A stretch of DNA of 64,000 nucleotides from Acidobacteriota bacterium (GTDB lineage Bacteria > Acidobacteriota > Vicinamibacteria > Marinacidobacterales > Marinacidobacteraceae), in NCBI GenBank assembly GCA_028877265.1, contig JAPPGX010000191.1:66144-130143 (forward strand), given 5' to 3'. Each line of letters opens with the position of its first letter. The stretch's first letter is position 1. Shown here one piece after another: positions 29,949 to 52,071 of the stretch. The notes below the pieces were generated by a model that was not told the origin of the DNA, did not search any database, and saw only the letters and a program-made list of their open reading frames with translations. The translations under genes and the position numbers were made by a program.

Positions 29949-30196
29949 GTCACGAGATTCGCGTGGCCTGAACGGGAGTTCCAGAAGTTCCCGGAACGCC
30001 GCGTGGCGGGCGGTGTTCCATGGGGTGTTGACGGGCTTCGGATTTCGCTATCCGTCTACCTGGCTTCAGGAACGGAACCCGTCCCCCGGAATAAAACCGC
30101 TCGTTAGGGAAGACGCCCTTGTTCGGCGTCCCGAGTCCGGGAAAGCCTTGTCAGTTTCCAGCAGTTCTTCTGTTTCTCGAAGGGAGGAGGCGAACG

Positions 30197-33067
30197 ATGC
30201 GTTTCAGGAATAGACCAGTTCCAGCAGCTGTGGCGGCGGTGTCAGTCGTCGTCCTTCTCTTTCTTTCTGCGGCGCCGGAAGCGGGGGCGCAGGGAGCCGC
30301 GGCGCTCATGACCGGCACCGTGCAGGATGAGACCGGGGCGGTGCTGCCCGGGGCCACGGTGACCGCGACGAACCAGGAGAGCGGTGTACAGCGGGTAACC
30401 GTCACGGATGAGTTCGGGCGCTACCGGCTCCCCGCGCTGATTCCGGGCGTCTACCAGATCACCGGGCAGATCTCCGGTTTCGAGACGCTCACGATGACCG
30501 ACATCACGCTGCAGATCGGCCAGGAGGCGAGCCTCGACTTCACCCTCGGGGTCCGCTCGATCGAGGAGTCGGTCACCGTTACCGGAGCGTCGCCGTTGAT
30601 CGAGACCACGAAGTCGGAGATCGCTCAAGCGGTCACCGATCTCCAGATCCAGACCCTCCCGGTGAACACCCGCGAGTGGATCAACCTTGCGATGCTCGCC
30701 GCCGGCGTGAGCCAGGACAACATCCGGGGCTACTACAACAACGCCAACATCGGCGGCGGCTCGCGCTGGTACTCCAACGCCTTCGTGGTGGACGGGGTGC
30801 GGAACACCTGGGCGGAACAGGGAGAGCCGCGCCAGAACTTTCCGATGGATTCGATTGCGGAGTTCAGGGTCACCCAGTCGCTCTACAAGGCCGAGGAGGG
30901 ACTGGCCAGCGGCGGACTGCTCACCGCCGTGACGAAGTCGGGCACGAACACGCTGACCGGCAGCACCTTCCTCTACCTGCGCGACAAGGCGCTGAACGCG
31001 CTCGGCGAATTCGAGGACGAAAAGCCCGCCTTCAAGCGCTACCAGTTCGGAGGCAGCCTGGGCGGTCCCATCGTCGAGGACCGGACCCATTTCTTCTTCT
31101 CGTACGAGCGCACCGAGCTGGATCACTTCTTCACCGTGAACACCGGTGGCGCGCTGCCGGCGGAAGAGGGCACCTTCCCACGCGACGACTACCGGCAGAT
31201 GTACGTCCTTCGCTTCGACCACCTCTTCAACCCCTACCACTCCATGATGGTCCGCTATGCGCAGGAGGACGAGCGGCAGGAGGACATCGGGGCAGGCGGC
31301 ACCCGTCTGAAAGGCTCCGGCTTTACCCAGCACATCCCCCGCCGCGCCGTGGTCGGCACCTACTCGTGGATTCCGAACAACGATGCGCTGAACGAGTTCC
31401 GGGTCCAGTGGGCGTTCGCCGCCTACCAGATCTGGCCGGGCAGTTCCGCCGAGAACTTCACCGAGAACGGCATCTGGAGCGAGGCGCGCTTCAACGCGCT
31501 CGACCAGGTCATCATCCGGCCCAGCTCGCGTCGGGGCTTTTCCTGGGCCGACGTTGGGCCCGAGGTGCGTCTCCAGTTCCGCGACGACTTCTCCTACTTC
31601 GTGACGGGCCGGGGAGGCGAACACGCCATCAAGATGGGCGTGGACTACTCCTGGGTGGACTTCAGCGACGACTGGTCGGGGAACCCCCGCGGCACCTTCC
31701 GTTTCCCGACCGACGCGCCCTATGACCCCGGCAACCCGGAGACCCATCCCACCCTCTTCACCGCGTCCGGTCCCTTCGCTCTCCTCCGCGCGTTCCAGTA
31801 CGGCGGCTTTCCGGCCGAGTGGAACACCAACGTCAAGTCCGCCTACTACTCCGCGTACATCCAGGATGACTGGAAGCCCAATGACCGGATGACGCTGAAC
31901 CTCGGCCTCCGCTACGACCTCCAGACCGGCGTCTTCAACAAGGATCTGGACCGCTCCATCTCTCCTTTCATCGAGCCGGACGCGAGGGGCGACAACAACA
32001 ACTTCGGTCCCCGCTTCGGCTTCGCCTACGACCTTACGGGGGACGGCCGGTCGGTGATGCGCGGGGGCTACGGGCTCTACTACGACAACATCCGCACGTT
32101 GCCGCAGTTCGGTGAACGACGGAACTTCCAGTACATCAACCTGCAGATCCGGAACCCGGGGTATCCCGATCCGTTCGGCGGCCGGGACTTCCTCGAGTTC
32201 GCCTCCACCGCGGCCCCCGGGATCACCATTACCGACAACGGCTACGTGAACCCGTATTCCCACCAGGCGAACGTCAGCTTCACCCGGCAGATCAGTTCCG
32301 ACCTGGCCATGTCGGTGGACTTCAACTACACAAAGGGAAATGCGTACCGCTCGGTGCGGGACATCAACATCTTCCCCGGGCCGGGCCTCGCGCGCCCCAA
32401 CCCGGAGTACGCGCGCATCACGGAAGTCGGGAACCTCGGTGGGACGGAGTACAAGGCGATGTTCGTCCGCCTCGACAAGCGGTTCGCCGACAACTGGCAG
32501 TTGATGGCCTCCTACACCCTCTCGAAGTCGGACGACTATCCCGACGGTTTCCCCCAGGATCACACCAATGTGGATAACGACTGGGGGCCGGACAGCACCG
32601 ACCGGCGTCACCGGGCGGTGATCAGCGGCATCTGGATGCTTCCCTACGGCATCGAGTTGAGCGGTATTGCCGACATCCGGTCCGCTCGCCCGGTGAACAT
32701 CACCGCGGGCACCGACCTGAACGGAGATGCGATCAGCGGTGACCGGCCGCCGGGGGTGACCCGAAACCAGGGCTGCCGCGATCTCGATTTCGGCGCCGTC
32801 AACGCCTACCGGCAGTCGATCGGCCTCTCCGCGGTGAACGAAGGCGCCTTCGAATGCCCGAACTATTTCAACGTGGACTTTCGGCTGAGCAAGCGCTTCA
32901 ACATCGGGGGACCCCGGGATCTGGAACTCTTCGTCCAGGCGTTCAACCTGTTCAACCGTGCGCATTTCGCGATCCCGGTCGGTAACGTGCGTTCCGGCGC
33001 CTTCGGAACGTCGGTCAGCGCCGGGTTCCCGCGCCAGGTCGAGCTGGCGGCAAGGATCCATTTCTGA
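30197..33067 (+). CDS. Oar-like TonB-dependent receptor (CarboxypepD_reg domain plus a large beta-barrel)
   Basis: GGAGGAGG lies 7 nt upstream of the ATG at 30197. A signal peptide is present. 'GTVQDETGAVLPGATVTATNQESGVQRVTVTDEFGRYRLPALIPGVYQI' marks the N-terminal domain, and 'TPLIETT' type plug motifs follow. The C-terminal strand is 'RQVELAARIHF'. Confidence 0.85.
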   Translation: MRFRNRPVPAAVAAVSVVVLLFLSAAPEAGAQGAAALMTGTVQDETGAVLPGATVTATNQESGVQRVTVTDEFGRYRLPALIPGVYQITGQISGFETLTMTDITLQIGQEASLDFTLGVRSIEESVTVTGASPLIETTKSEIAQAVTDLQIQTLPVNTREWINLAMLAAGVSQDNIRGYYNNANIGGGSRWYSNAFVVDGVRNTWAEQGEPRQNFPMDSIAEFRVTQSLYKAEEGLASGGLLTAVTKSGTNTLTGSTFLYLRDKALNALGEFEDEKPAFKRYQFGGSLGGPIVEDRTHFFFSYERTELDHFFTVNTGGALPAEEGTFPRDDYRQMYVLRFDHLFNPYHSMMVRYAQEDERQEDIGAGGTRLKGSGFTQHIPRRAVVGTYSWIPNNDALNEFRVQWAFAAYQIWPGSSAENFTENGIWSEARFNALDQVIIRPSSRRGFSWADVGPEVRLQFRDDFSYFVTGRGGEHAIKMGVDYSWVDFSDDWSGNPRGTFRFPTDAPYDPGNPETHPTLFTASGPFALLRAFQYGGFPAEWNTNVKSAYYSAYIQDDWKPNDRMTLNLGLRYDLQTGVFNKDLDRSISPFIEPDARGDNNNFGPRFGFAYDLTGDGRSVMRGGYGLYYDNIRTLPQFGERRNFQYINLQIRNPGYPDPFGGRDFLEFASTAAPGITITDNGYVNPYSHQANVSFTRQISSDLAMSVDFNYTKGNAYRSVRDINIFPGPGLARPNPEYARITEVGNLGGTEYKAMFVRLDKRFADNWQLMASYTLSKSDDYPDGFPQDHTNVDNDWGPDSTDRRHRAVISGIWMLPYGIELSGIADIRSARPVNITAGTDLNGDAISGDRPPGVTRNQGCRDLDFGAVNAYRQSIGLSAVNEGAFECPNYFNVDFRLSKRFNIGGPRDLELFVQAFNLFNRAHFAIPVGNVRSGAFGTSVSAGFPRQVELAARIHF

Positions 33068-35001: not shown

Positions 35002-36531
35002 GTGGGCTTGAGGAATCGCGTTCTCCTGGCGGCGATCCTTCTTGGCGGGGGATTTGTGTTTCCGGCGGCGGGCGGTTGCGCCCTGCGGTCGGGAGGTTCC
35101 CCCGACCTGGCGCAGGAGGCGGCCCCCGAACTGCCCTCCGACTTTGCCGAGAATCCAGCCAGCGGAGCCCGCCAGGCGCAGGAGTGGTGGCGGGCGTTCG
35201 CCGATCCCGCGCTCGACCACGTGGTCGAATCGGTACTGGACTCCAATTTCTCCGTGGCGGAAGCGGTAGCGCGGGTCGAGCAGGCCCGAACGCGGGCCCG
35301 GCTGGCCGACGCGGCGATCCTGCCCACGGTCGGAGCGAGCCTCACCGCGGAAACCTTCGACCTGCCCACGAACGCCGCGATCGGCGCCCAACTCGAGGAC
35401 CTCGGTCTCGATTTCCCGCTGCCCGACCGGCTGGGCTTCCCGACCTATACCCTGGGCGCGGACTTTGCCTACGAAGCGGATTTCTGGGGCCGCGTCCGGC
35501 ACACCGCACTCGCGGCGGGATCCGAACTGCTGGCCTCGGAGTTCGACCTGCGGGTCGCCCGCATCGGCATCCTCGCCGAGACGATCTCGGCCTACTTCGA
35601 AATCGGCCATCTCCGGCAACAACTCGCCATCGCTCGAGGGCACGTGGAACTGCTCGAGGAACGCGAGCGGCTGGTCGAGAGCCGCTACGAACGTGGGCTT
35701 GCCGTCTCGCTCGAACTGCACGGCGTGCGTCAGGCTCTCTCGAGCGCCCGGGCCGGCGTGCCGCAGGTCGAGAATCAACTCGCCGAGACCGAGTCGCGGC
35801 TCGCCGTGCTGCTGGGAGGCTACCGGGAGGATGTCGCGGCGATCCTTCCCGAATCCCTCTCCCCGGAATCTCCAGCCGAACCGGTGCCCGCAGGCATTCC
35901 GGCCGACCTCCTTTCGCAGCGCCCGGACGTGCAGGCCGCGGGTCACCGGCTGGAAGCCGCCGGACACACCGTCGAAGCCCGTCGGGCCGCGTTGATGCCG
36001 CAGCTTTCGCTCTCCGGATCCATTGGACTCCGGAGTACGGACGCCGGAGGCCTCTTCGACGTCAAGCAGTGGTTCACGAACCTCGCCGGCAACCTCCTTC
36101 GTCCGGTGTTCGACGGCGGCCGGCTCGCGAGCGGCGTGGAACTGGCCGAGGCCCGCTTCGACGAGTTGGCGGCGGCCTACGGCCGGACCATCGTTACCGC
36201 GGTCAACGAGGTGGAAGCGGCCCTGGCCACCCTCAGGAACGAAGGCCGGCGGCAGGAATCTCTCGCCGCGCAGCACGAGGAGGCCCGCGCCTCCGTCGAA
36301 GCTCAGTCCAGGCGCTATGAGGCGGGCATCAGCGGCTATGGCGATCTGCTCGATGCGAATGCCAGACTGCTGGATGCGGAATCGGCGCTCGCGGGTTCGG
36401 CGCGGAACCTGGCGCTCGCCCGCCTCGCCATCCACCGGGCTCTGGGGGGCGCCTGGACCGCCCCGGACGAGATGGCCAGCGCGCCGGCGAGCACGCCGGA
36501 TGCCCGCGCCAAAGGACCGGCCGACCGATGA
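35002..36531 (+). CDS. RND efflux outer-membrane factor lipoprotein (NodT family)
   Basis: A lipobox is present in LLGGGFVFPAAGGC. 'WWRAFADPALDHVVESVLDSNFSVAEAVARVEQAR' is the typical NodT N-terminal repeat. The second repeat reads 'LLSQRPDVQAAGHRLEAA'. Confidence 0.85.
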   Translation: MGLRNRVLLAAILLGGGFVFPAAGGCALRSGGSPDLAQEAAPELPSDFAENPASGARQAQEWWRAFADPALDHVVESVLDSNFSVAEAVARVEQARTRARLADAAILPTVGASLTAETFDLPTNAAIGAQLEDLGLDFPLPDRLGFPTYTLGADFAYEADFWGRVRHTALAAGSELLASEFDLRVARIGILAETISAYFEIGHLRQQLAIARGHVELLEERERLVESRYERGLAVSLELHGVRQALSSARAGVPQVENQLAETESRLAVLLGGYREDVAAILPESLSPESPAEPVPAGIPADLLSQRPDVQAAGHRLEAAGHTVEARRAALMPQLSLSGSIGLRSTDAGGLFDVKQWFTNLAGNLLRPVFDGGRLASGVELAEARFDELAAAYGRTIVTAVNEVEAALATLRNEGRRQESLAAQHEEARASVEAQSRRYEAGISGYGDLLDANARLLDAESALAGSARNLALARLAIHRALGGAWTAPDEMASAPASTPDARAKGPADR

Positions 36532-37745
36532 ATCGAACGAAGGGATTCATCCTGGCGGCGATCATCCTGCTGGGATCGTTCGGGATCGCAACCCTGCTGA
36601 TCGCGCAGCGGCCGGAGCCCGAGCGGCGCGAACCTCCCTCCCGGATTCCGTTCGTCGTCACGGCGCCCGCGGTCGCGGGTTCGGGGCCGATCCCGGTCCA
36701 CGGCGCCGGGACGGTCCGGCCCCGCGTCCAGGTGGAGGTGGCCGCCGGGGTGAGTGGACGGGTCGTCCGGGTTGATCCGGGCTTCGAGAGCGGCGGCCGG
36801 GTCAGCGAGGGTCAGGCGCTCTTCCGCCTCGACGACGCCGACTACCGCTTCCGGGTGGAGCAGGCCCGTTCCGGCGTCGCCGTACAGCAGGTGGAACTGC
36901 TGAAGGTCGAGGAGGAAGCGCGGATCGCCCGCGAGCAGTACGAAGCGTTCCAGAGCCGCCGTGGCGCCGCCGGGGACGCGGAAGCGAGTCCCCTGGCGCA
37001 CTGGGAGCCGCAGCTCGAGGCGGCGCGGGCCGGTGTGGAACGGGCCCGCGCGCTCCTCGCGGAAGCCGAACTCCTGCTCGCGCGAACCGAAGTTCGGGCG
37101 CCCTTCGACGCCGTGGTGCGCTCCGAGAGCGTCGGGGTCGGACAGTTCGTGACCGCAGGGGTCGGCGTCGGCCGGATTTACGCCTCCGATGCGGTCGAGA
37201 TCGTCGTCCCGCTGTCCGACGCCGATGCGGCGCTCGTCCCGGGTCTGTGGGACCTGAGGCCGGGAGTCGCGGATCGTCGGGCGGCGGCCCGGGTCACCGC
37301 GGACTACGGGACCGGCGCCTATGCCTGGGACGGGTACGTGGACCGGGTCGAGGCCGCACTGGATGAAACGACGCGCACCCTCGATGTGATCGTGCGCGTT
37401 CCGAACCCCTTCACGGGTGGTTCCCGGGTGCAAGCGGGAGAAGCGAGCGCGGACGCCGGATCCGCGCCGCCGCTCCTGATCGGCCAGTTCGCGAACGTCG
37501 AGATATCGGGGATCGCGCCGGAGGAGTACTTCCGGATCCGGCGGCTGGGGCTCCGGCCGGGCAACGAGGTCTGGGCGGTGGACGGCGAGGCGGTGACCAT
37601 CGTTCCGGTCCGCGTGCTGCAGCGCTTCGACGACACCGTCTACGTCACCGGCGGGCTGCAGGAAGGCCAGGAGGTAGTCCTGAGTGGCATTCAGTTCGCG
37701 ACCGAGGGACTGAGGGTGCGGACCGCCGCGAACCCGGACCCTTGA
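36528..37745 (+). CDS. RND efflux periplasmic adaptor (membrane fusion protein)
   Basis: The start overlaps the OMF stop as ATGA. An N-terminal TM anchor is followed by 'VSEGQALFRLDDADYR', a coiled-coil hairpin, 'TEVRAPFDAVV', and a beta-barrel/MPD ending 'VVLSGIQ'. Confidence 0.8.
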   Translation: MNRTKGFILAAIILLGSFGIATLLIAQRPEPERREPPSRIPFVVTAPAVAGSGPIPVHGAGTVRPRVQVEVAAGVSGRVVRVDPGFESGGRVSEGQALFRLDDADYRFRVEQARSGVAVQQVELLKVEEEARIAREQYEAFQSRRGAAGDAEASPLAHWEPQLEAARAGVERARALLAEAELLLARTEVRAPFDAVVRSESVGVGQFVTAGVGVGRIYASDAVEIVVPLSDADAALVPGLWDLRPGVADRRAAARVTADYGTGAYAWDGYVDRVEAALDETTRTLDVIVRVPNPFTGGSRVQAGEASADAGSAPPLLIGQFANVEISGIAPEEYFRIRRLGLRPGNEVWAVDGEAVTIVPVRVLQRFDDTVYVTGGLQEGQEVVLSGIQFATEGLRVRTAANPDP

Positions 37746-37854
37746 ACCTGCGGGACGTTGTAAGGCCCGGAGCGCAGGTCGATCGCCCGCAGTCGGATCC
37801 GCCGGGGTGGGGCGGAGGAGGAAGGACCTTGGGCGAGAATGCCGGTCAGGACGC

Positions 37855-38850
37855 ATGAGTGAAGACGTGCTCTCCCCGTTCCCGGAGGGTTGGTATTTCG
37901 TTACCACCCGGGGATCACTGGAGAAGGCGAGGCTCATCCAGAAGACCTGGATGGGAAAGGACATCGTCGTCTGGTGCGACGACGCCGGCGGAATCTCCGT
38001 GGCCGAGTCGGTCTGTCCTCACCTGGGGTCCGAACTGGGCCCCGCCGCCGGCGGCCGAGTGCGGGATGGCCGTCTCGTGTGTCCTTTTCACGGCTACGAG
38101 TTCGACGTCAGCGGGCAATGCGTCGCCACGCCCTTCGCCCCGCCGCCGAAGACCGCGAGGCTGAGGTCGTTCGAGACTCGGGAGGTCCTGGGCATCGTCT
38201 TCGCCTGGTGGGGAATCGACGGACGGCCCCCGCAGTGGAGCCTTCCCGAGGACCCGCCGGCCGGCGCCGACTGGTGCGAACCGGCGTTCCGGACTCTCCG
38301 GTTTCGGGGGCACCCCCAGGAAACGAGCGAGAACGCCGTGGACATGGCGCACCTCCGGTACGTGCACGGCTACGGCAACGTCGGCCGGGTCGGCAAGGTA
38401 ACGGTGGACGGCGCGTATCTGCGGAGCTGCTTTGATTTCAAGCGCACCCAGCGCATCGCCGGAGCCATCAATCTCACCTTCGACGTCTCCGCCACCGCGC
38501 ATGTCGTCGGACTCGGATACTCGCTCGTGGAGTTCCACGAGCGCTCCATTGGAATGGACGGACGCCTCTGGGTCCTTGCGACGCCCGTCGACGGCACGCT
38601 CATCGACCTGGTGCTGGTCGGACAGTTGCGAAGAATCCGGAAACCGAAGCGGCTGATCGTCGGGTTGCGGTTCCTGCCGCCTGCTCTCCGTACCGGGACC
38701 ATGAACAAGCTGATGCTGTTCTTCCAAAGGCACGACGTCATGCAGGACGTGGAGATCTGGAGCCGGAAGCGGTACCGGTCGCGCCCGAGCCTCAGCCGGG
38801 CCGACGGCGAGATCGGGTTGTACCGGCGCTACTGCAGGCAGTTCTACTAG
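37855..38850 (+). CDS. Rieske [2Fe-2S] non-heme-iron oxygenase (KshA / Neverland-like architecture)
   Basis: The Rieske motif is 'CPHLGSELG...(x19)...CPFHGYEF'. The mononuclear iron motif E-x3-D-x2-H-x4-H lies in 'ENAVDMAHLRYVHG'. The N terminus 'GWYFV' is typical for this class. I chose the ATG at 37855. Confidence 0.8.
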   Translation: MSEDVLSPFPEGWYFVTTRGSLEKARLIQKTWMGKDIVVWCDDAGGISVAESVCPHLGSELGPAAGGRVRDGRLVCPFHGYEFDVSGQCVATPFAPPPKTARLRSFETREVLGIVFAWWGIDGRPPQWSLPEDPPAGADWCEPAFRTLRFRGHPQETSENAVDMAHLRYVHGYGNVGRVGKVTVDGAYLRSCFDFKRTQRIAGAINLTFDVSATAHVVGLGYSLVEFHERSIGMDGRLWVLATPVDGTLIDLVLVGQLRRIRKPKRLIVGLRFLPPALRTGTMNKLMLFFQRHDVMQDVEIWSRKRYRSRPSLSRADGEIGLYRRYCRQFY

Positions 38851-38872
38851 CGCGGCCAGGCGCCCGCCTGGC

Positions 38873-40252
38873 TCAGGCGCTCCGGAACCGCCAGCCGTAC
38901 ATCACCCGGCCGTAGAAGTTGAACCACTTTCTGGCCTCCGGGTCCTCGAACGGATAGTCCGCGCCGAGCTGTCTCGCCGTGACGAGGCCGGACACGAAAC
39001 AGGTCTCCTGGCTGTTGACCAGGGTGTGCGCGCCACAGTGCCAACTCCGCCGCTTTCCCTGGACGAAGCGAAACAACTGGGTCAGGAAGGCGACGTGAGG
39101 CACGTCGTGCACGATGTGCTGAAACCACCACCTCTTGACGATCCTGCTCTCGTCGATACGGCTGATCGGGTTGTAGGTCACGAGACACGGCTTGTCCGAC
39201 GTGTTCGCCCAGGGCTGCTGGTTGTGCATGATGTAGGTGATCTCGTAGTTGTCGGGCCGCGCGCCGTACTGCTCGATGTGGTTGCTCCGGGTGGCGAGCG
39301 GCCTGGCCTCGTTGTCGGGGAGGACCGAGGCGTCCGAATGCACGACCGTGTGGTTGTGCAGTTCGCTTTCGTACCGGATCGAGGAGAGGAGCCAACCCTC
39401 CAGCCGCGTCGGCCTGTCGAGGAGCATCAGCGTCTGGTTCGCGTTGCACGCGAAGACGACTTCGTCGAAGGTTTCGGTCCTTCCGTCCTCGTCCTCCACG
39501 ACAACCTCGTTACGGCGCCGGTGGACCCTTCGCACCGGCCGGTTCAGATAGATCTTCTCGCGAAAGGCTGCGGACAGATCCCGGTAGATCCGCCGGGTGC
39601 CCTGATCCCAGGTCTGCATCGGCGTCGCGGTCTCGATGTCGAAGAAGTCCAGGTACCGCGAAAAGAGCGACGCCGGCATGTCGAACACGTTCGTCGCCAT
39701 CAGGAAGTTGACGAACATGGGCTTCAGGACCTTGTACCGGAAGTCCCCCGAGTACCTTCCCAGGTTCAGCAGCGCTCCCATGCTGACGTAGTTGAACGGG
39801 TTAAGGGAGCTGAGCAGCTTCGACCTCGAGACGTTGAGCCGGCCGAACCACTTCAGACGTCTCAGGAGACGCTGGAACTTCTGGATTTCCGGTTGCAGTT
39901 GCCTCCTGATGTCGGAGTCGAAGTCGTGGGCATAGATTCCGCCTCGATACTTCACGCTGTAGTTGAACCGCGTTTCGAGCAGCTCGATGCCGTGCTGTTG
40001 CATGAGCAGGACGAAGTGGTGGTATGCCGACGGTATGCACGCGGTGACCGAGATATCGAACGGCACCGTGCTGCCGTCGTCCTGCGGCATGTCCGCAGTG
40101 ATCGCATTGCCGCCGAGCTGCGCCTGCGCTTCGAAGAGCCGAAAATCGAAACGGTCCCGGTGGCGGTTGAGCGCCCACGCCGTCCCGAGCCCCGAGGCGC
40201 CCCCACCGACAATGGCAACCCTTCTCGGCGCGCCGCCCTTCGCTTCACCCAC
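38873..40252 (-). CDS. Rossmann-fold NAD(P)/FAD-dependent oxidoreductase (amine-oxidase/COG2907-like)
   Basis: The N-terminal dinucleotide motif is 'RVAIVGGGASGLGTAWAL...LFEAQAQLGGN'. The protein is 459 aa. The C-terminal 'WHCGAHTLVNSQETCFVSG' resembles the COG2907 tail. Confidence 0.7.
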   Translation of the reverse strand: MGEAKGGAPRRVAIVGGGASGLGTAWALNRHRDRFDFRLFEAQAQLGGNAITADMPQDDGSTVPFDISVTACIPSAYHHFVLLMQQHGIELLETRFNYSVKYRGGIYAHDFDSDIRRQLQPEIQKFQRLLRRLKWFGRLNVSRSKLLSSLNPFNYVSMGALLNLGRYSGDFRYKVLKPMFVNFLMATNVFDMPASLFSRYLDFFDIETATPMQTWDQGTRRIYRDLSAAFREKIYLNRPVRRVHRRRNEVVVEDEDGRTETFDEVVFACNANQTLMLLDRPTRLEGWLLSSIRYESELHNHTVVHSDASVLPDNEARPLATRSNHIEQYGARPDNYEITYIMHNQQPWANTSDKPCLVTYNPISRIDESRIVKRWWFQHIVHDVPHVAFLTQLFRFVQGKRRSWHCGAHTLVNSQETCFVSGLVTARQLGADYPFEDPEARKWFNFYGRVMYGWRFRSA

Positions 40253-40431
40253 ATTCCTACTCTACCTTTGGGGTGCGGCCGCCCCGTCCGCTCGCCGCCG
40301 CCGCAGTAGGCGGTCCGGGGACCCTGCCGACCCCTTGCCCGCCCGCTCCATCGACTAGACTCTGACCCGGACCATCCAGTGGCGGCGGATCGGTGGGGCT
40401 GTCGAGCCGCCTCGGCTGGAGGTTGAGCACC

Positions 40432-42450
40432 ATGAGCGAGGGCACCCGGTTTCCGATCCGAATCGCCGAGGAGTTGATCCTCCTCATGCTGGACGAGCAG
40501 AGCGGCTACCTCGAGATGGTTCCGAACTGGGACTTCTCCTGTGTCATGGCCGGGGCCGTGCTCGCCGACCTGGCCCTGGAGCGTCGCATCGAGACCGACC
40601 TGGAGCGGTTGTACCTGGTCGATCCCTCACCGACCGGAGATGAGTTGCTCGACCCGACGCTCAAGGACATCGCCGAATCCGACGAAAAATCGGACGCCCA
40701 GTTCTGGATCGAACGGAACACCCGCCAAGCCGACGAAATCGTCGCAGCCGCCCTCGAGCGCCTGGTGGAGCGGAACATCCTTACCCACGAGAGCGGCGGA
40801 TTCTGGGGGCTCTCGCGCTCTGTCGCCCGTTCAGGGACTTTTCCGACCCAGGCTGTCGCGACCCGCCGGGAATCCAAGGTGAGGGTCCTGAGCGTCATCC
40901 TGAACGACGAGATCCCGGACCCGCGGGACGCCATCCTGGTCGCGCTGATGCACACCTGCGGCGGCTTCAAGCTGCTGCTGGAGGAAGAGGACTACGAAGA
41001 GCGGCTCGCCCGCATCGAACTCGTCGCCAAGCTGGACCTCATCGGACGGACGGTCGCCGCCGCCGTGAAGGACAGCACGGCGAGGCCCAAGACCCGTCGC
41101 GTCGTTCAGACGAAGCCCATTCCCAAGCCTGGGTATCTCGTACTGCTACAGCGCGACTTCCTCTCCGGCAACATCTCGAAGGCGATGTACGGCATGTATC
41201 GAAAACACGGGCCGGTCGTCAGGATGCCCTTCAAGATCCGCGGCAAGCCCGTCGTTTCGTTGATGGGTGCCGATGTCAATCACTGGGTCAATCGGCACGG
41301 ACGGTTCTATCTCCGCTCGAAGGACTACATCGAAGGGCTGGAGCACGCGTTTGGCGCATCCCGGAGTCTCCCCGGAATGGATGGCGCCGAACACTATCGA
41401 ATGCGCAGGGAACTCCAGACTGCGTATTCCCGCGCCACGCTCGCGCAGCGGCTGCCGGAGCTGATCGACGACTGCCGGAAATCGCTGAGCCGTTGGAAGG
41501 AAGGGGATGTCTTCCGCGCCACCGAGAGCTTTCAGAACCACATCAGCAGTCAGATCTCCAATTTCGCGATGGGAGTGGATTGCAGCCACTATGTCGACGA
41601 ACTGTTGGCCTTTGAACACCGTGCACTGATAACGCGGGTCCAGGGCGCATTGCCGGATTTCATGCTGTCCACCCCAAGAATGAAACGGTATGGGAAGCGT
41701 GTCAGGGAACTCCAGGAGGCGATCACCGCGGGACACACGACGGCGCTGCGCAAGGGAAAGCCCCGGGATCTGGCCGACGCGATTCTCGATCTCCACAAGA
41801 GGGACCCGCAGTTCCTTCCCGAAACGGACCTCACCTTTCCCTTCGTGGCTTCCATGGTTGCGAGCATCTATCTCGGCAGCGGACTGGCCTTCACTGTTTA
41901 CAACATGGTTCGAAACCCGGACGTGTACGCGAGGGTCCGGAGCGAGGCCGAGTCGCTGTTCGGCAACGGTCGTGAACTTGCGGGAGATGACTTCAATCAC
42001 CAGAGCATCGACGTCACGGTGCGTCTCTGCATGGAATCCTCGCGTATGTACCCGGTGATTCCATGGCAGTTGAGAACGGTCATGAACGAGTGCATCGTCA
42101 GTGGTTACGAGATACCGCCGAAGACGATGTTGCTGATTTGCCAGACTGCGCCGCACTATGCCGAGGATCTGTACCGGGATCCGTTGAAGTTCGATATCGA
42201 TCGGTACTTGCCGGACCGGGCCGAGCATCTGCAACCGGGCGCCTATGCGCCCTACGGCCTGGGTACGCACATGTGCCTCGGCCACCGGTGGGTGGAACTT
42301 CAGATGGCCGTCAACGTCCTGCTCATCGCGCATCACCTGCAGCTCGAAGTGGTGCCCGGCAACTACAAGATGGGAATCAATCCGTTCCCGACCTTGGCCC
42401 CCAACAGGAAGCTGAAGTTCCGCGTCGCCGGGGTCCCGCGTCCCGTGTGA
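40432..42450 (+). CDS. Fusion protein: an N-terminal GPP34/GOLPH3-like domain joined to a C-terminal cytochrome P450
   Basis: GGAGG lies 10 nt upstream of the ATG at 40432. GPP34 blocks are 'IAEELILLMLDEQSGYL', 'VMAGAVLADLALERRI' and 'PDPRDAILVALMHTCG'. P450 blocks are the ExxR 'ESSR' followed by 'MYP' and the heme-Cys loop 'YAPYGLGTHMCLGHRW'. Confidence 0.8.
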   Translation: MSEGTRFPIRIAEELILLMLDEQSGYLEMVPNWDFSCVMAGAVLADLALERRIETDLERLYLVDPSPTGDELLDPTLKDIAESDEKSDAQFWIERNTRQADEIVAAALERLVERNILTHESGGFWGLSRSVARSGTFPTQAVATRRESKVRVLSVILNDEIPDPRDAILVALMHTCGGFKLLLEEEDYEERLARIELVAKLDLIGRTVAAAVKDSTARPKTRRVVQTKPIPKPGYLVLLQRDFLSGNISKAMYGMYRKHGPVVRMPFKIRGKPVVSLMGADVNHWVNRHGRFYLRSKDYIEGLEHAFGASRSLPGMDGAEHYRMRRELQTAYSRATLAQRLPELIDDCRKSLSRWKEGDVFRATESFQNHISSQISNFAMGVDCSHYVDELLAFEHRALITRVQGALPDFMLSTPRMKRYGKRVRELQEAITAGHTTALRKGKPRDLADAILDLHKRDPQFLPETDLTFPFVASMVASIYLGSGLAFTVYNMVRNPDVYARVRSEAESLFGNGRELAGDDFNHQSIDVTVRLCMESSRMYPVIPWQLRTVMNECIVSGYEIPPKTMLLICQTAPHYAEDLYRDPLKFDIDRYLPDRAEHLQPGAYAPYGLGTHMCLGHRWVELQMAVNVLLIAHHLQLEVVPGNYKMGINPFPTLAPNRKLKFRVAGVPRPV

Positions 42451-42517
42451 CCGCGGGGGCGCGTAACGGCGCGGCCGACCCCGGAGTGTTTCTCAGGACT
42501 CGCTTCCACACGTATCG

Positions 42518-45500
42518 ATGAGTTCCGATCCAGGCAACCACGCGGAACCCCGTGGACCGATCGCCTACATGGCGAGCAACGGCGTGGCGTCCAACTTGCT
42601 GATGTTCGGCATCCTCGCGGTGGGCCTCGTGTCGCTGACCGGCCTCGAGCAGCAAGCGTGGCCCACGGTGCCTTTCAACCAGTTCGAGATCTCGGTGCCG
42701 TTCCCGGGCGCAACGCCCCAAGAGGTGGAGGAGGCCATCGTCGTCAAGATCGAGGATGAGGTCAGGGGATTGGCGGAGGTGAAGACGGTCCGGTCCGTAG
42801 CGGCCCCGGGAATGGCGTCCGTCAGGGTCGAAGTCAACTCCGGTACGGACATGGGCGCGAAGAGGGACGAAATCGAGTCGGCGGTCGCGCGGATTCAGAC
42901 CTTCCCGGGTGGGGCCGAGCGGCCCCAGATCCGTGAAATGACGAACGCCCAGAGCATGATGCGTCTCGTCCTCTACGGCGACGTTCCAGAGCGCTCGCTG
43001 AAGGAGCTCGCCCACCGGATCGAAGACGATCTCGCGTCGCTCCCGAACGTGTCCCTGGTCGAGACCAGCGGGGTGCGCAACTACGAGATCTCGATCGAAG
43101 TGCCGCTCGAGCGGCTGCGGGCCCTTGGGCTCACGCTGACCGACATCGCCAACACGGTTCGCCGCGGTTCCCTGGACCTGTCGGCGGGCAGCATCGATAC
43201 CGCGCAATCCCGGGTGCGGATTCGGACCCTCGGCCAGAGCTACGACCAGCAGGACTTCGAGGACATCGTCGTCCTCGGCCGCGCCGACGGCACGGTGGTG
43301 CGCCTGGGTGAGATTGCCGAGGTGCGCGACGGCTTCCACGACTCAGGTTTGCTGGTGCGGTACCAGGGCGAGCCAGCCGTGTTCGTCGAGGTTTCGCGAG
43401 CCGATGGCGAGAGGGTGATGGACGTGGCGCGCGCCGTTCGGGAACACGTCGCGAACGAGATAGCGCCCTCGCTCCCGGACGGCATGGGCATCGACATCTG
43501 GAACGACGACTCTTCGGTCTTCTCGGAACGTGCCCTCCTTCTCCTCAAGAATGGAGCCTTGGGGCTGTTGCTGGTCCTGATCGCGCTGGGTCTGTTTCTC
43601 CAGCTTCGGCTGGCGTTCTGGGTCGCCGTCGGCCTCGGCGTTTCCGCGATCGGCGCCCTGGCCGCCATGATGGTGTTCGACATCCCGCTCCACGAGATTT
43701 CGCTCTTCGCCTTCGTGCTCGCCATCGGCATCGTCGTGGACGATGCGATCGTCGTGTCGGAGCACATCCACGAGGAACGAAAGCGCGGCACGCCGGGACT
43801 CGCGGCGGCGATCCGGGGCGCGCGACGCATCAAGGTGCCGCTGGTCTTCGCGGTGCTGACGACCATCGTGGCGTTCCTTCCGCTGCTCTTCATACCCGCG
43901 GGGTTCGGAGAGGTGTGGAAGGCACTGCCGATCGTCGCTATTGCCACGCTGCTCTTTTCGCTGGTCGAATCGCTCCTGGTGCTGCCCAATCATCTGTCCC
44001 ATCATCTGCACGGCCCGGATTGGGCGCCCCGGACGGGCATGGAGCGGTTCGTCGCCCGGATCCAGAATCGGGTCGATTCCTGGTTGAACCGCTTCATCCA
44101 GGGACCCGTGGACCGCGGGATCCAGTTGGCGACGGACTGGCCCGGGGTGACGGTTTCGGCGGCCGTTGCGCTGCTCGTCCTGAGCATTTCCCTTCTTCCG
44201 GCCGGCATCGTTCCCACCACCTTCGCGACGAAGGTCGAAGGCGACTTCGCGATCGCCACCCTTGAGATGCCGGAAGGAACGACCGCGCCGCAAACGTACG
44301 CCGTGGCGCAACACCTGGAATCGGCCGGCCGCCGGGCCGTCGAGCGGCTCTCCCAAAGCCGGCCCGCTGACGCGCCTCCCCTCTTGTCCGGAGTTACGGT
44401 CGTCGTCGGCCAGCGGTCGCGGCTCGAAACCGGAGGCCTCAATCCCTCGCCCACTTTGAACCCGGAAGCCAATGTCGCGACCATCGAGTTCAAGCTCCTG
44501 AGCGCCCAGCTGCGGAGCATCACTTCGGGAGACGTCGTGCAGGCATGGCGCGAGGAGGTGGGTGTCCTGCCTCAGGTACGCGCGGTCACCTTCATCAGCG
44601 AGATCTACACATTGGGCAACCCCGTCGAGGCGGCGCTGTCCCACCCGGATCCGGAACGCCTCAACGAGATCGCGAATTCCACCGTCGCCGGCCTCGGCAG
44701 GGTCGGAGGCGTCTTCGACATACGCTCGGATCACACTCCCGGGATCCCGGAAGTCCAGGTGGGACTACTTCCCGAAGCGCGCACCCTGGGCCTCACGCTG
44801 GATGATCTTGCCCGGCAGACGCGAGCGGCCTTCTTCGGTGAGGAGGCCGTGCGGGTGCAGCGGGGACGTGACGAAGTTCGGGTCTACGTCCGGTTACCCG
44901 AGGAGCAACGGAACGCGATCACCGACGTCGAGAGTTACCGGCTCCGGACGCCAACTGGCGCCGACGTGCCGGTCAGCCGCGTGGCTTCGCTGAGTTCGGG
45001 CACCTCGCCGCCGGCCATCCGGCGCCAGGACGGCCAGCGGATTGTGACCGTTACCGCGGATGTCGATCCGAGTGTGACTTCCGCCGCGACCGCCAACGAC
45101 ATTCTGGAGAACACCATCCTGGCGGGGCTCATCGCGGAGAACCCGGAACTGACCTATACCTTCGGAGGGGAACAGCAACAACAGCTCGACTCCCTGGGCG
45201 GTCTCTATCGCGGATTCGTGATCGCGCTGCTCCTGATCTTCGCGCTGCTGGCCATTCCCCTGCGCTCCTACACGAAACCGTTCATTGTCATGGCCATCAT
45301 CCCGTTCGGGTTCGTCGGGGTGATCCTGGGTCACTGGATGCTGGGGGTCGCCGTGAGCGCGGAGTCCTTCGTCGGGATCTTCGGGTTGGCCGGCGTGGTC
45401 GTCAACGACTCCCTGGTGATGATCGATTTCACCGACCAGAAGCTCCGGGACGGCATCCCGGTGCGAACCGCGATCATCGAGGGCGCGAAGGGACGCTTCC

Positions 45501-45721
45501 GCCCGATCATGCTGACTTCCCTGACGACCTTCCTGGGTTTCACCCCCCTGATTCTCGAGGACGCGATTCAGGCGCAGTTCTTTGTTCCCTTCTCCGCCTC
45601 GATCGGTTGCGGCATTCTCTTCACCACGGTGATCATCATGTTTCTGGTGCCCGCGCTTTCCTCGATCCACCTGCGCCTTGGCTCGGCCCGGCAACAACTG
45701 GCCGCCGAGGGTTCCGGTTGA
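42518..45721 (+). CDS. RND efflux permease (AcrB/HAE-like inner-membrane transporter)
   Basis: The protein is 1067 aa. Blocks are 'ASNLLMFGILAVGLVSL', the TM4 block 'LAIGIVVDDAIVVSEHI', and the second half-repeat 'AGVVVNDSLVMIDF'. It lies 67 nt downstream of the P450 gene on the same strand. Confidence 0.85.
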   Translation: MSSDPGNHAEPRGPIAYMASNGVASNLLMFGILAVGLVSLTGLEQQAWPTVPFNQFEISVPFPGATPQEVEEAIVVKIEDEVRGLAEVKTVRSVAAPGMASVRVEVNSGTDMGAKRDEIESAVARIQTFPGGAERPQIREMTNAQSMMRLVLYGDVPERSLKELAHRIEDDLASLPNVSLVETSGVRNYEISIEVPLERLRALGLTLTDIANTVRRGSLDLSAGSIDTAQSRVRIRTLGQSYDQQDFEDIVVLGRADGTVVRLGEIAEVRDGFHDSGLLVRYQGEPAVFVEVSRADGERVMDVARAVREHVANEIAPSLPDGMGIDIWNDDSSVFSERALLLLKNGALGLLLVLIALGLFLQLRLAFWVAVGLGVSAIGALAAMMVFDIPLHEISLFAFVLAIGIVVDDAIVVSEHIHEERKRGTPGLAAAIRGARRIKVPLVFAVLTTIVAFLPLLFIPAGFGEVWKALPIVAIATLLFSLVESLLVLPNHLSHHLHGPDWAPRTGMERFVARIQNRVDSWLNRFIQGPVDRGIQLATDWPGVTVSAAVALLVLSISLLPAGIVPTTFATKVEGDFAIATLEMPEGTTAPQTYAVAQHLESAGRRAVERLSQSRPADAPPLLSGVTVVVGQRSRLETGGLNPSPTLNPEANVATIEFKLLSAQLRSITSGDVVQAWREEVGVLPQVRAVTFISEIYTLGNPVEAALSHPDPERLNEIANSTVAGLGRVGGVFDIRSDHTPGIPEVQVGLLPEARTLGLTLDDLARQTRAAFFGEEAVRVQRGRDEVRVYVRLPEEQRNAITDVESYRLRTPTGADVPVSRVASLSSGTSPPAIRRQDGQRIVTVTADVDPSVTSAATANDILENTILAGLIAENPELTYTFGGEQQQQLDSLGGLYRGFVIALLLIFALLAIPLRSYTKPFIVMAIIPFGFVGVILGHWMLGVAVSAESFVGIFGLAGVVVNDSLVMIDFTDQKLRDGIPVRTAIIEGAKGRFRPIMLTSLTTFLGFTPLILEDAIQAQFFVPFSASIGCGILFTTVIIMFLVPALSSIHLRLGSARQQLAAEGSG

Positions 45722-45758
45722 CGGGGCGGGCGGACGAAGAGCCCGTCGGGGCGCCGGG

Positions 45759-46814
45759 CTAGCCCGAAAGGGGCCGGCGCGCCACGAAACAGTAGAGCGG
45801 GGTGAAGATCCCCGTCTTGCCCCCCGCGACGTAAGCGTCCGCGGTCCGGTCCAGGAGAGCCACCACCTCCGCCGAGCCCCTCGGGAACGCACCGAAGAAC
45901 TCGGCCAGCCGGACTCCCCACCGCAGCGCCTTGCGGCCCATCGGAATCCGGCGGAACGCGCTGCCGGGCAACCCGCGGAGGGTTTCCATGGGCTGATACC
46001 ACGGCGTGTCCTGACGGTGCCCGTCGGCGGCGAGGTCCTCACCCTCCAGGACTTCGAATCCTGCGGTTGCGAGCGCCCGGTTGACCTCCCCGAACGTCGC
46101 AATGTCCTTGAGCGCGATGCCGTGCATGAGCTCCTGCTTGATGGCGCGGTGCCGGTCGTCCCCCGGGTCGTACAGGTCCGTCATGCACATTTCCTGGCCC
46201 CAGAAGAGGGCTCCAGGTTTCAGCACTCGGTAGATCTCGGCGAACGCGCCCGCCTTGTCGTCCGCGTGGCAGGTTGATTCGATCGCGTAGCCGCGGTCGA
46301 AGGTCCGGTCCGCGATCGCGCTCATGTCCATGAAGCTGCACTGGAGACAGTCGGTCTGGCCGGCGAGCCCCGCGGCCTCGTTCAAGCGCCTTGCGTTGTT
46401 GCACTGGACTTCGCTGGCGTTGATTCCGACAACGCGGACTCCAACCTCCCTCGCCACGCGGCGCATCGGACCGCCGATCCCGCATCCGACATCCACGACG
46501 GTCATGCCCGGACGCAGTTCGAGCCTGGACATCATGAGTCTCTGGTGCCGGATCTTGGAGTCCTCCAGGCTTTCGCCGGGCGACAGCGGCGCAAAGTGCA
46601 GGGACTCTCCCCAACCCATGACCATGAACTCGGTGCAAAGGTCGTAGTACTCCTTGACGGTCCGCGTGTGGTCGTACCCCCCGTCGGCATCCCCCCGGGG
46701 GGATGCCCTGTCGGTCCATCCTTCGAAGTCCCGCACGCGGTTCGTGACGTTTGATCCGCCGAACGCAGTTCTCAACCCATCGGATAGCCCACGGATTTGT
46801 CCGGTGAACTTCAC
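45759..46814 (-). CDS. Sterol 24-C-methyltransferase (ERG6/SMT) family SAM-dependent methyltransferase
   Basis: Blocks, compared with ERG6/SMT1 from memory: 'EYYDLCTEFMVMGWGESLHFAP' (SMT region I, YEYGWGxSFHF); SAM motif 'VVDVGCGIGGP'; 'YAIESTCHA' (ERG6 YAIEATCHA); 'IYRVLKPGA'; 'PWYQPM'; and the C-terminal 'YVAGGKTGIFTPLYCFVARRP' (ERG6 LVAGGKSKLFTPMMLFVARKP). The start at 46814 is GTG. Confidence 0.85.
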   Translation of the reverse strand: MKFTGQIRGLSDGLRTAFGGSNVTNRVRDFEGWTDRASPRGDADGGYDHTRTVKEYYDLCTEFMVMGWGESLHFAPLSPGESLEDSKIRHQRLMMSRLELRPGMTVVDVGCGIGGPMRRVAREVGVRVVGINASEVQCNNARRLNEAAGLAGQTDCLQCSFMDMSAIADRTFDRGYAIESTCHADDKAGAFAEIYRVLKPGALFWGQEMCMTDLYDPGDDRHRAIKQELMHGIALKDIATFGEVNRALATAGFEVLEGEDLAADGHRQDTPWYQPMETLRGLPGSAFRRIPMGRKALRWGVRLAEFFGAFPRGSAEVVALLDRTADAYVAGGKTGIFTPLYCFVARRPLSG

Positions 46815-52011: not shown

Positions 52012-52071
52012 CCCCCGCCACGGTAGCGCAGCGCCCGACGGATTCACCGAGCAGCCCCGTCCGCGCGCCGG

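Follow-up and report, generated by a model that had tools for sequence, protein, structure and literature searches.

A GPP34_L fusion of a GPP34 domain and a cytochrome P450 with a remodelled I-helix, encoded beside RND efflux, sterol-type methyltransferase and Rieske oxygenase genes

The 64-kb stretch of DNA analysed here (the window) encodes a 672-aa protein with an N-terminal GPP34 (GOLPH3-like) domain and a C-terminal cytochrome P450; the gene is a genuine member of GPP34_L, the GPP34-P450 fusions of sponge-associated bacteria. Three features are new beyond the published description of this family (PMC11706023): the PI4P pocket of the GPP34 domain is replaced and the domain is acidic, the P450 has a derived Tyr-aliphatic I-helix, and the neighbourhood of RND efflux, sterol-type methyltransferase (SMT) and Rieske oxygenase genes is conserved. 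Our best explanation, drawn from sequence and held with moderate confidence, is that the fusion provides the cytoplasmic P450 step in a shared module that tailors a sterol-like lipid and is coupled to RND export.

The initial annotation had read the 672-aa ORF as a fusion of GPP34 and P450. Both domain calls and the fusion itself hold; the novelty it had claimed for the architecture does not, as the family was described in 2025 under the name GPP34_L, comprising 656 sponge-symbiont proteins (Microbiome, PMC11706023). The architecture is already in the literature and is therefore not news. The same paper reports GPP34_L from host-associated bacteria only, with in situ expression. The features of the fusion gene are (coordinates, strand, description):

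40418..40422, +, Shine-Dalgarno-like GGAGG, 9 nt 5' of ATG 40432 (read from the sequence)
40432..42450, +, GPP34-P450 fusion gene, 672 aa, stop codon included (ORF list, Pfam, full-length homologues, AlphaFold2)
40462..41070, +, GPP34 (GOLPH3-like) domain, residues 11-213 (Pfam PF05719, E 1.1e-33)
40780..40812, +, beta-hairpin LTHESGGFWGL, residues 117-127, corresponding to the beta3/beta4 hairpin of GOLPH3 (profile alignment)
41071..41166, +, basic linker and proline-rich start of the P450, residues 214-245 (net charge +5, pI 11)
41119..42384, +, cytochrome P450 domain, residues 230-651 (Pfam PF00067)
41860..41877, +, I-helix motif A477-S-I-Y480-L481-G482 replacing AGxD/ET, with a one-residue deletion (alignments; inside helix 468-494)
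42034..42045, +, ExxR motif E535-S-S-R538 (E535 and R538 invariant in the family alignment)
42250..42282, +, heme-thiolate loop PYGLGTHMCLG with Cys615 (G609, H613 and C615 invariant)

The ORF list offers two starts for the + strand frame that ends at 42450, GTG 40393 and ATG 40432; the alignment of homologues begins at residue 1 of the ATG 40432 start. GC3 of the gene is 0.81, matching the real genes nearby, and the AlphaFold2 model of the protein has a mean pLDDT of 89.7 and a pTM of 0.85. Reading of the N-terminal sequence shows no signal peptide, and a promoter and terminator scan around the gene returned no sites, which is weakly informative in a non-model organism with 65% GC. NCBIfam holds no equivalog for the fusion or its neighbours, the best matches being far under the cut-offs.

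The GPP34 half

The match to PF05719 covers profile positions 1-199 of 201 with 117.5 bits (cut-off 29.1), and a profile of the family finds the solved structures of human GOLPH3 (E 1e-13) and Vps74 (E 2e-11). The hairpin is retained: its strands are residues 117-120 and 124-127 (DSSP on the AlphaFold2 model), and its GGFW is conserved in the window clade. The residues that form the PI4P pocket of GOLPH3 and Vps74 are W81, R90, R171 and R174 in human numbering (PMC2806290), and the equivalents in the fusion are all replaced: W81 by V30/P31, R90 by A40, R171 by D101 and R174 by V104. At the R90 position, nearly all 51 family members have Ala or Gly. W33 lies two residues off the W81 position and is a possible substitute for it. 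The domain has a net charge of -16 and a pI of 4.6.

Because all four pocket residues are replaced and a net charge of -16 is the opposite of an anionic-membrane-binding surface, membrane recognition of the GOLPH3/PI4P type appears doubtful for this domain. The idea that a lipid- or membrane-recognition domain delivers the P450 to a membrane-embedded substrate survives in part: a lipid substrate is probable from the SMT, KshA-like Rieske and RND neighbours (see below), and recognition in the manner of GOLPH3 and PI4P is made doubtful by the lost pocket and the acidity.

Whether the domain could still serve as a peripheral membrane anchor or lipid-recognition domain, setting the P450 on the inner membrane beside a membrane-embedded substrate, is a separate matter, and we regard this as a tentative possibility. 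The GPP34 domain sits where microsomal P450s have an N-terminal membrane anchor and is followed by the basic linker and a proline-rich hinge (P231, in this stretch, is invariant in the family alignment); the Phe-Trp hairpin is conserved in the window clade and the genomic context points to lipid substrates. However, a strongly acidic domain without a phosphoinositide pocket is expected to bind anionic bacterial membranes poorly, and the hairpin of GOLPH3 and Vps74 also mediates oligomerisation (PMC2806290), so that its retention is no proof of membrane insertion. Most likely the GPP34 domain would act as a docking or oligomerisation adaptor, less likely as a PI4P sensor. Rare GPP34-Rieske and GPP34-ABC-ATPase fusions also exist (PMC11706023), so that this adaptor is also found attached to the module's second type of oxygenase and to a transporter.

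Neighbouring genes and the proposed module

The fusion gene is surrounded by the following genes (coordinates, strand, description):

35002..36531, +, outer-membrane efflux channel of the NodT/TolC type (Pfam OEP; TIGR01845, 284.6 bits, cut-off 210)
36528..37745, +, RND periplasmic adaptor, a membrane fusion protein (Pfam HlyD_3; TIGR01730 RND_mfp, 152 bits, cut-off 94.9)
37807..38850, +, KshA-like Rieske non-heme-iron oxygenase (Pfam Rieske and KshA_C)
38873..40252, -, FAD amine-oxidase-like oxidoreductase, LkcE-like (Pfam Amino_oxidase; PDB LkcE, 6e-27)
42518..45721, +, AcrB/MexB-type RND efflux permease (Pfam ACR_tran, E 5e-153; PDB matches to HAE1-type pumps)
45759..46814, -, sterol-type C-methyltransferase, SMT (Methyltransf_11, 62.5 bits, cut-off 21.2; Sterol_MT_C, 59 bits, cut-off 21.7)

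The RND permease gene has the same orientation as the fusion and begins 67 nt 3' of it; the gap contains no terminator-like site. The Rieske protein has the motifs CPHLG...CPFHG and DMAHLRYVH (read from the sequence), and its best solved relative is KshA, the 3-ketosteroid 9alpha-hydroxylase (E 2e-24), with a match that spans residues 25-187 only. An assignment as the sterol C-4 demethylase SdmA was rejected: NF052579 scores 37 bits against a cut-off of 600, through the Rieske domain only. The SMT has the combination of Methyltransf_11 and Sterol_MT_C by which SMTs were recognised in PMC10070321 (Nat Commun 2023), where sponge-symbiont SMTs with these two domains methylate sterols in vitro; methylation of a sterol side chain is a putative activity of the protein encoded here. 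PF08498 is found in 120 of 120 SMT homologues among the matches listed, one of which is named sterol 24-C-methyltransferase by JGI.

The window fusion is carried by a Vicinamibacteria-type Acidobacteriota MAG. We compared 49 related loci from species-representative genomes, all of them uncultured MAGs; the closest is an Acidobacteria MAG with 98% identity. Among all ORFs of these loci, only six families recur widely: the fusion (47 loci), the RND permease (36-40), the adaptor (at least 30), the SMT (26-28), the Rieske oxygenase (24-29) and the outer-membrane channel (about 20). SMT and Rieske genes lie near the fusion in three phyla, and the genes stand in different orders in Acidobacteriota, Gammaproteobacteria and Rhodothermales. 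Cross-phylum identity is alike for all module genes (55-68%) and the GC content of the module is 0.645, compared with 0.69 in the flanks; the similar identities and the lower GC fit joint horizontal transfer. The amine-oxidase-like gene is limited to Acidobacteriota loci, as a lineage-specific accessory, and no redox partner is conserved near the fusion at the 49 loci. More distant fusions likewise have a KshA-type Rieske gene and transporter genes of the RND or MMPL class beside them. Relatives with a canonical I-helix (see below) have sulfotransferase or glycosyltransferase genes as neighbours, not SMT, and FMO-like genes too; substrates may therefore differ across the family. A literature search found no earlier account of this sterol/P450/RND symbiont module.

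The conserved neighbours of the fusion, namely SMT, KshA-like Rieske oxygenase and RND pump, make a lipid its probable substrate. The fusion protein would be cytoplasmic and would supply the P450 reaction of a horizontally shared module that also includes the sterol-type C-methyltransferase and the KshA-like Rieske oxygenase. This module would tailor a sterol-like lipid, probably taken from the host, and hand the product to the adjacent tripartite AcrB-type RND pump for export. A sterol-like substrate is supported by all three enzymes: among solved proteins the Rieske protein is nearest to the steroid hydroxylase KshA, the SMT has Sterol_MT_C, and the best solved relatives of the P450 include CYP46A1 and CYP51. 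Against it, the similarity of the P450 to sterol P450s is weak (about 20%) and generic for E-class enzymes, and AcrB-type pumps are generalists. Among the 33 proteins of the 64-kb window that were scanned there is no oxidosqualene cyclase, squalene epoxidase, CYP51 or sdmAB; because no sterol-synthesis genes are among them, the lipid is probably host-derived.

The module could instead serve general detoxification and efflux of lipophilic xenobiotics of the sponge, such as terpenoids and halogenated aromatics, and not be a sterol system. Phase I would then fall to the P450 and the Rieske oxygenase, phase II to the methyltransferase and phase III to the RND pump. The pump indeed belongs to the AcrB/MexB multidrug group, the P450 has a generic fold assignment, and the sulfotransferases, glycosyltransferases and FMO-like genes beside the canonical-I-helix relatives would suit such a role. 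We nevertheless consider it unlikely, though worth keeping in mind, both for the module as a whole and for this division of roles: Sterol_MT_C is specific to ERG6/SMT and present in 120 of 120 methyltransferase homologues among the matches listed, and the Rieske partner is closest to a steroid enzyme, KshA.

The sole published functional idea for the family is that GPP34_L is a secreted PI4P-binding effector that tampers with the host phagosome (PMC11706023): GPP34 would bind host PI4P and block phagosome maturation in sponge cells. The restriction to host-associated bacteria and the in situ expression fit this proposal, the GOLPH3 fold is clearly present and W33 may stand in for W81. However, none of the four PI4P-pocket residues is retained and one position has Asp, the domain carries a net charge of -16, and the N-terminus has no visible signal peptide. 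The P450 half depends on heme and probably on redox partners of the cytoplasm, and the genes that constantly accompany the fusion encode an efflux pump, an SMT and a Rieske oxygenase; secretion genes are not among them. The effector idea is hard to square with the pocket loss, the acidity and the efflux and sterol-type tailoring partners; we think it improbable, and the context suggests sterol-like lipid tailoring over phagosome tampering.

Taking sterol-like tailoring further, we tentatively propose an undescribed, horizontally mobile module (GPP34-P450 with a Tyr-based I-helix, KshA-like Rieske oxygenase, SMT and tripartite RND pump) with which sponge and coral symbionts that are unable to make sterols may remodel those of the host and give the products back, the GOLPH3 fold being re-purposed from a PI4P sensor to an adaptor for enzymes and transporters. 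The changes could include side-chain alkylation and unusual oxidation or rearrangement. If the module acts on sterols, very abundant sponge symbionts of several phyla would alter the sterols of their hosts while making none. Bacteria would then have a second way, which does not depend on de novo synthesis, of reaching the unusual sponge sterols behind the disputed 'sponge biomarker' steranes, and this would bear directly on who produces these sterols, which are used as the oldest claimed animal biomarkers.

The P450 half and its I-helix

The P450 half matches PF00067 with 124 bits (cut-off 22.8; E 9.4e-36) over profile positions 7-447 of 462. As judged from its motifs, it retains all that is needed for thiolate heme binding: the Cys loop, residues P607 to G617, agrees with FxxGxR/HxCxG and has the proximal Cys, ExxR is present as ESSR, and there is a PERF-like F587-D-I-D-R-Y-L with an invariant R591. 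The family alignment, which consists of 51 sequences, shows no variation at E535, R538, G609, H613 and C615. The closest solved P450 relatives are CYP46A1 (E 7e-21), CYP170A1 and CYP51 (E 3e-18). Foldseek against the PDB returns generic E-class P450s only (TM about 0.8), the best matches being a mix of CYP102, CYP51, CYP184 and CYP90B1; GOLPH3 matches are swamped. Orthology to CYP51 or CYP46A1 was rejected, as identity is about 20% and the I-helix differs.

The canonical acid-alcohol pair, (A/G)Gx(D/E)T(T/S), is absent from the fusion. In the HMMER alignment to CYP46A1, A477-S-I-Y480-L481 lies over A-G-H-E-T with one residue deleted, and in the family alignment the ASIYL residues fall on the AG[LI]D/ET motif of distant fusion relatives; the acid is therefore replaced by Tyr480 and the Thr by Leu481. 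The initial annotation had called the pair missing from an ungapped hand alignment: the loss is borne out by both alignments, including the profile alignment in which a normal pair might have appeared and which instead gives ASIYL-G with a deletion, while the ungapped register, with Ile for the acid and Tyr for the Thr, was off by one. The motif lies in the middle of an uninterrupted helix (468-494) in the AlphaFold2 model, and A477, Y480 and G482 are invariant across 43 orthologues of 55-98% identity. The 51-sequence alignment has D/E-T in 25 proteins, H-T in 4 and Tyr-aliphatic in 15. As most of the distant fusion relatives have the canonical AGxD/ET, the Tyr-aliphatic I-helix marks a derived subclade. 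Such a fixed replacement, nested among canonical relatives, is a natural experiment in how P450 oxygen chemistry changes.

The remodelled I-helix predicts atypical chemistry. Oxygen activation might be helped by the substrate or by Tyr480, or the reaction might be other than hydroxylation; the sequence supports no assignment of a reaction type. A catalytically dead P450, or a purely structural heme domain, would also explain the loss of both acid and Thr and the deletion of a residue. This is very improbable, since the replacement is fixed over 55-98% identity, the Cys loop, ExxR and the PERF-like motif are invariant, and conservation is equal in the two halves of the protein, about 20% of the positions being invariant in each.

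Spread of the fusion and comparison with known systems

A search with the fusion gave 727 matches at E <= 1e-5; architecture was noted for the 120 listed, and 120 of 120 homologues among the matches listed combine the two Pfam domains in a single protein about 673 aa long. The single-ORF fusion spans at least three phyla. Several relatives have isolate names that we take to belong to sponge MAG series, one (Plut_88867) is presumably coral-derived, and one distant member is from a TARA sample. That the fusion is an assembly or frameshift artefact joining two genes found no support and is refuted with near certainty by the same uninterrupted ORF at 43 of the 49 loci, independently assembled, and in more than 120 database clusters, complete chromosomes included.

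The protein has the architecture of GPP34_L, N-terminal GPP34 and C-terminal P450 in about 670 aa, and its relatives come from the same taxa (Acidobacteriota, Proteobacteria and Bacteroidota MAGs) among many phyla. PMC11706023 covers architecture and distribution, without the loss of the PI4P pocket, the acidic charge, the two I-helix classes or the RND/SMT/Rieske neighbourhood; in its full text the words 'sterol', 'methyltransferase' and 'efflux' occur zero times. With GOLPH3 and Vps74 (PDB 3KN1, 9QPQ, 2ZIH) the GPP34 half shares the fold, by sequence profile, and the projecting beta-hairpin. In contrast to these proteins, its pocket is replaced, the domain is acidic instead of basic, and it is fused to an enzyme.

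The P450 half resembles CYP46A1 (cholesterol 24-hydroxylase) and CYP51 (sterol 14alpha-demethylase) in Cys loop, ExxR and overall fold but has ASIYL-G in the I-helix, where CYP46A1 has AGHET and CYP51 AGQHTS. P450s without the acid-alcohol pair include the allene oxide synthase CYP74, the endoperoxide isomerases CYP8A1 and CYP5A1 and the CYP152 peroxygenases, as well as EryF, in which oxygen activation is substrate-assisted. The fusion shares with them the loss of the I-helix Thr and acid, which predicts chemistry other than standard monooxygenation. CYP74 has an altered Cys loop and CYP152 has Arg-Pro, each a diagnostic change of its own family; in contrast, the Cys loop of the fusion is ordinary, and a conserved Tyr takes the place of the acid.

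The Rieske protein is similar to KshA in its Rieske and KshA_C domains and in both metal-binding motifs, but no KshB-type reductase gene adjoins it. The text and supplements of Brown et al. 2023 mention no P450, GPP34, Rieske or efflux gene. The bacterial sterol clusters of sponge metagenomes carry the genes for de novo synthesis, OSC, SMO, CYP51, ERG24 and sdmA/sdmB (PMC10070321). They share with the module a methyltransferase with Methyltransf_11 and Sterol_MT_C, a Rieske oxygenase in the cluster and the origin from sponge-associated bacteria, whereas the module has, in addition, the GPP34-P450 fusion and a tripartite RND pump, both absent from that paper, and lacks OSC, SMO, CYP51, ERG24 and sdmA/sdmB.

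The GPP34-P450 gene and its family

In the ORF list of the window, the fusion is a single reading frame on the plus strand that starts at 40393 (GTG) or 40432 (ATG) and ends at 42450. Since GGAGG lies 9 nt 5' of the ATG at 40432 and homologues align starting at residue 1, the 672-aa reading is right. Its third-position GC (0.81) matches that of the neighbouring real genes, unlike that of the antisense overlapping ORFs. Pfam identifies two domains:

fusion residues 11-213: GPP34 (PF05719), E 1.1e-33
fusion residues 230-651: p450 (PF00067), E 9.4e-36

NCBIfam has no specific family for it: the hits, to a mixed set of P450s, are weak and stay below threshold. Both Pfam domains are present in all 120 listed homologues from a search of 5.8 billion proteins (~673 aa, 68-94% identity). 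Scanning one genome per bacterial species yielded 49 loci, each on a MAG from an uncultured bacterium. They fall in Acidobacteriota (Vicinamibacteria, Bryobacterales), Gammaproteobacteria (Pseudomonadales and relatives) and Rhodothermales/Bacteroidota, plus a single Alphaproteobacterium. The closest is 98% identical to the window protein, and 43 of the 49 encode the fusion in an uninterrupted single ORF. The initial annotation's claim of GPP34 and P450 in one ORF is thus borne out by Pfam, by the 43 loci and by the listed homologues, and an assembly artefact joining two genes, against which it had asked for a check, is excluded by the independent loci with the same ORF. When 50%-identity cluster representatives were searched without a word index, 338 clusters scored below E 1e-30, and some 50 of these are full-length fusions (26-63% identity). 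Four loci of Gamma- and Alphaproteobacteria MAGs (L044, L046, L048, L049; match regions from 10001) have only partial or shortened matches, for example to residues 467-672 or 519-666, which may be pseudogene remnants.

The architecture had been thought undescribed; this was wrong, and as an architecture it is not novel. A 2025 paper reports 656 proteins combining GPP34 and cytochrome P450, named GPP34_L, all from sponge-symbiont genomes, together with rare GPP34-Rieske and GPP34-ABC-ATPase variants (PMC11706023). In some genomes a second GPP34-P450 paralogue lies within a few kilobases of the first (locus L011, 10001-12019 and ~13594; loci L059/L060, 572-2575 and 10001-11998). In L059/L060, whose record name begins with TARA_, both paralogues flank an OEP-adaptor-RND operon; this sample may be non-sponge, and such an origin would bear on the published claim that only sponge symbionts have the fusion.

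The I-helix of the P450 half

In a HMMER alignment to CYP46A1, A477-S-I-Y480-L481 falls on A-G-H-E-T and one residue is deleted. That the acid-alcohol pair is missing, as first proposed, is confirmed by the CYP46A1 and family alignments, but the proposed register was off by one residue. In the family alignment (the window protein and 50 members, down to 26% identity), the two I-helix columns are D/E-T in 25 of the 51 sequences and H-T in four; 15 sequences, the window protein and relatives down to ~39% identity, carry Tyr and then Leu, Ile, Val or Gly, and a few are intermediate forms, for example AGHYT. A477, Y480 and G482 are invariant across 43 orthologues (55-98% identity). From these alignments, the Tyr-aliphatic I-helix is a derived state that has become fixed in a single subclade of an otherwise canonical family. 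The sequences with His-Thr in alignment A1 are the distant fusion proteins P0128, P0152, P0153 and P0175 (AG[LIM]HT, ANLHT in P0152); this arrangement is typical of the sterol 14alpha-demethylase CYP51.

Otherwise the P450 machinery is intact: in the family alignment the ExxR motif, the PERF-like FDIDRY and the Cys loop show little or no variation. In a confident AlphaFold2 model of the fusion (pLDDT 89.7, pTM 0.85) the I-helix motif lies mid-way in an unbroken helix (468-494), and the structural neighbours are generic E-class P450s (CYP102, CYP51, CYP184A1, CYP90B1 and CYP46A1; TM ~0.8). The best solved sequence matches of the P450 half are CYP46A1 (7e-21), CYP170A1 and CYP51; the resemblance to the sterol P450s CYP46A1 and CYP51 is suggestive but weak.

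The GPP34 half

A profile built from the GPP34 domains of 25 fusions hits human GOLPH3 (E 1e-13) and yeast Vps74 (2e-11). PI4P binding was tested by double alanine substitutions of W81, R90, R171 and R174 (PMC2806290); the numbering of the profile-GOLPH3 alignment reproduces these published pocket residues, which correspond to the following positions of the window protein:

GOLPH3 W81: V30 or P31
GOLPH3 R90: A40
GOLPH3 R171: D101
GOLPH3 R174: V104

At the R90 position, nearly all of the 51 family members have Ala or Gly. The domain has a net charge of -16 and a pI of 4.6 in the window protein and is acidic in nearly every family member. The pI is 11 for the basic linker and 9.2 for the P450 half. 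Judged by its sequence, the GPP34 domain is probably not a PI4P reader. It is conserved to the same degree as the P450 half, which argues that it is functional, and it retains the beta-hairpin, whose strands span 117-120 and 124-127 and which includes a conserved Phe-Trp. The hairpin of GOLPH3/Vps74 also mediates oligomerisation, and these proteins serve as adaptors to cytosolic tails of membrane enzymes (PMC2806290); docking or oligomerisation would be the most economical role for the fused domain.

The conserved module and its proposed role

The fusion lies among genes for efflux and for sterol-type enzymes:

35002-36531: outer-membrane efflux channel
36528-37745: RND adaptor
37807-38850: Rieske oxygenase with KshA_C domain; best solved relative 3-ketosteroid 9alpha-hydroxylase (E 2e-24)
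38873-40252, minus strand: LkcE-like FAD oxidase (FAD amine-oxidase-like); best solved relative LkcE (E 6e-27)
42518-45721, plus strand: AcrB/MexB-type RND permease, beginning 67 nt 3' of the fusion
45759-46814, minus strand: methyltransferase with Methyltransf_11 and Sterol_MT_C

A scan between fusion and permease found no terminator-like site. When all ORFs of the 49 related loci were clustered, only six families were widely recurrent: the fusion (47 loci), RND permease (40), adaptor (30), methyltransferase (26), Rieske oxygenase (24) and outer-membrane channel (~20), counts that are lower bounds, since many contigs break off after a few kilobases. These six families, the module, are present in all three main phyla, with their order and orientation reshuffled. 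Cross-phylum identities are alike for all members (55-68%), and the GC of the module (37807-46814) is 0.645 versus 0.69 in the flanks (0.596 in the P450 part); both findings fit transfer as a unit.

The LkcE-like gene, which separates the Rieske gene from the fusion, occurs only in Acidobacteriota versions. The window encodes two TonB-dependent-receptor-like outer-membrane proteins with CarboxypepD_reg (30119-33067, plus strand; 6418-8862, minus strand); the former is followed by a gamma-glutamyltranspeptidase gene just 5' of the efflux genes, and this pair recurs in close Acidobacteriota relatives only. A Sortilin-Vps10/BNR protein is encoded at 9573-12791, and a 274-aa Spondin_N protein (51223-52047, minus strand; Pfam E 1.8e-39) is eukaryote-like, since its domain belongs to the extracellular matrix of animals and here stands in a bacterial MAG. 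More distant fusions have similar neighbours, as with the paralogue pair around the OEP-adaptor-RND operon. The fusion P0123 (42% identical; L056/L057, 12301-22021) adjoins two MMPL transporters, a Rieske/KshA_C gene, DUF1329/TP_0789-like genes, DUF1302 genes and a BNR/Sortilin-type protein, surroundings that look like a lipid-transport cluster.

Fusions with a canonical I-helix adjoin RND genes, a glycosyltransferase or sulfotransferases, suggesting that their loci are variants of the module that would first hydroxylate, then conjugate and then export. One or two sulfotransferases follow directly, or a GT4 glycosyltransferase and an RND permease flank the fusion (L051, 10345-11589; L055, 9163-11362; L052, 1403-2563 and 4694-7855). 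Sulfated sterols are well-known sponge metabolites.

The module methyltransferase carries both domains by which Brown et al. selected bacterial SMTs, and most bacterial SMTs picked in this way methylated sterols in vitro (PMC10070321). Sterol_MT_C is present in all 120 listed homologues, from MAGs of several phyla, one of them named sterol 24-C-methyltransferase by JGI.

We put at about an even chance that the fusion is a cytoplasmic P450 that would tailor a sterol-like lipid by atypical oxygen chemistry, coupled to export, with the GOLPH3-fold domain as a putative adaptor. The initial annotation, its observation confirmed and its interpretation supported in part, had proposed GPP34 as a membrane anchor; this could hold in a form independent of PI4P and is unlikely. 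General xenobiotic detoxification and efflux is slightly less probable still as the role of the module. One limit of the sterol link is that AcrB-type pumps are generalists. The published proposal, in which secreted GPP34 proteins bind PI4P and act as effectors to stop the phagosome from maturing (PMC11706023), is very unlikely for the fusion, opposed by pocket residues, charge and gene context. A dead P450 half is scarcely credible, as the replacement I-helix motif has become fixed and the heme motifs do not vary.

The GPP34_L study analysed flanking genes for the short single-domain form only, and its text has no mention of sterols, methyltransferases or efflux (PMC11706023). The points of interest here are the subclade with the derived I-helix, the case against the published PI4P model and the conserved cross-phylum module with sterol-type enzymes and an efflux pump; we found none of these in PMC11706023, PMC10070321 or literature searches. 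The bacterial sterol clusters of Brown et al. differ from the module in that they make sterols de novo and contain OSC, squalene epoxidase, CYP51, ERG24 and sdmA/sdmB (PMC10070321), none of which was found among the 33 proteins scanned in the 64-kb window; the Rieske protein was rejected as SdmA. The substrate would thus be a sterol from elsewhere in the genome or a host sterol, the latter being more likely for a sponge symbiont.
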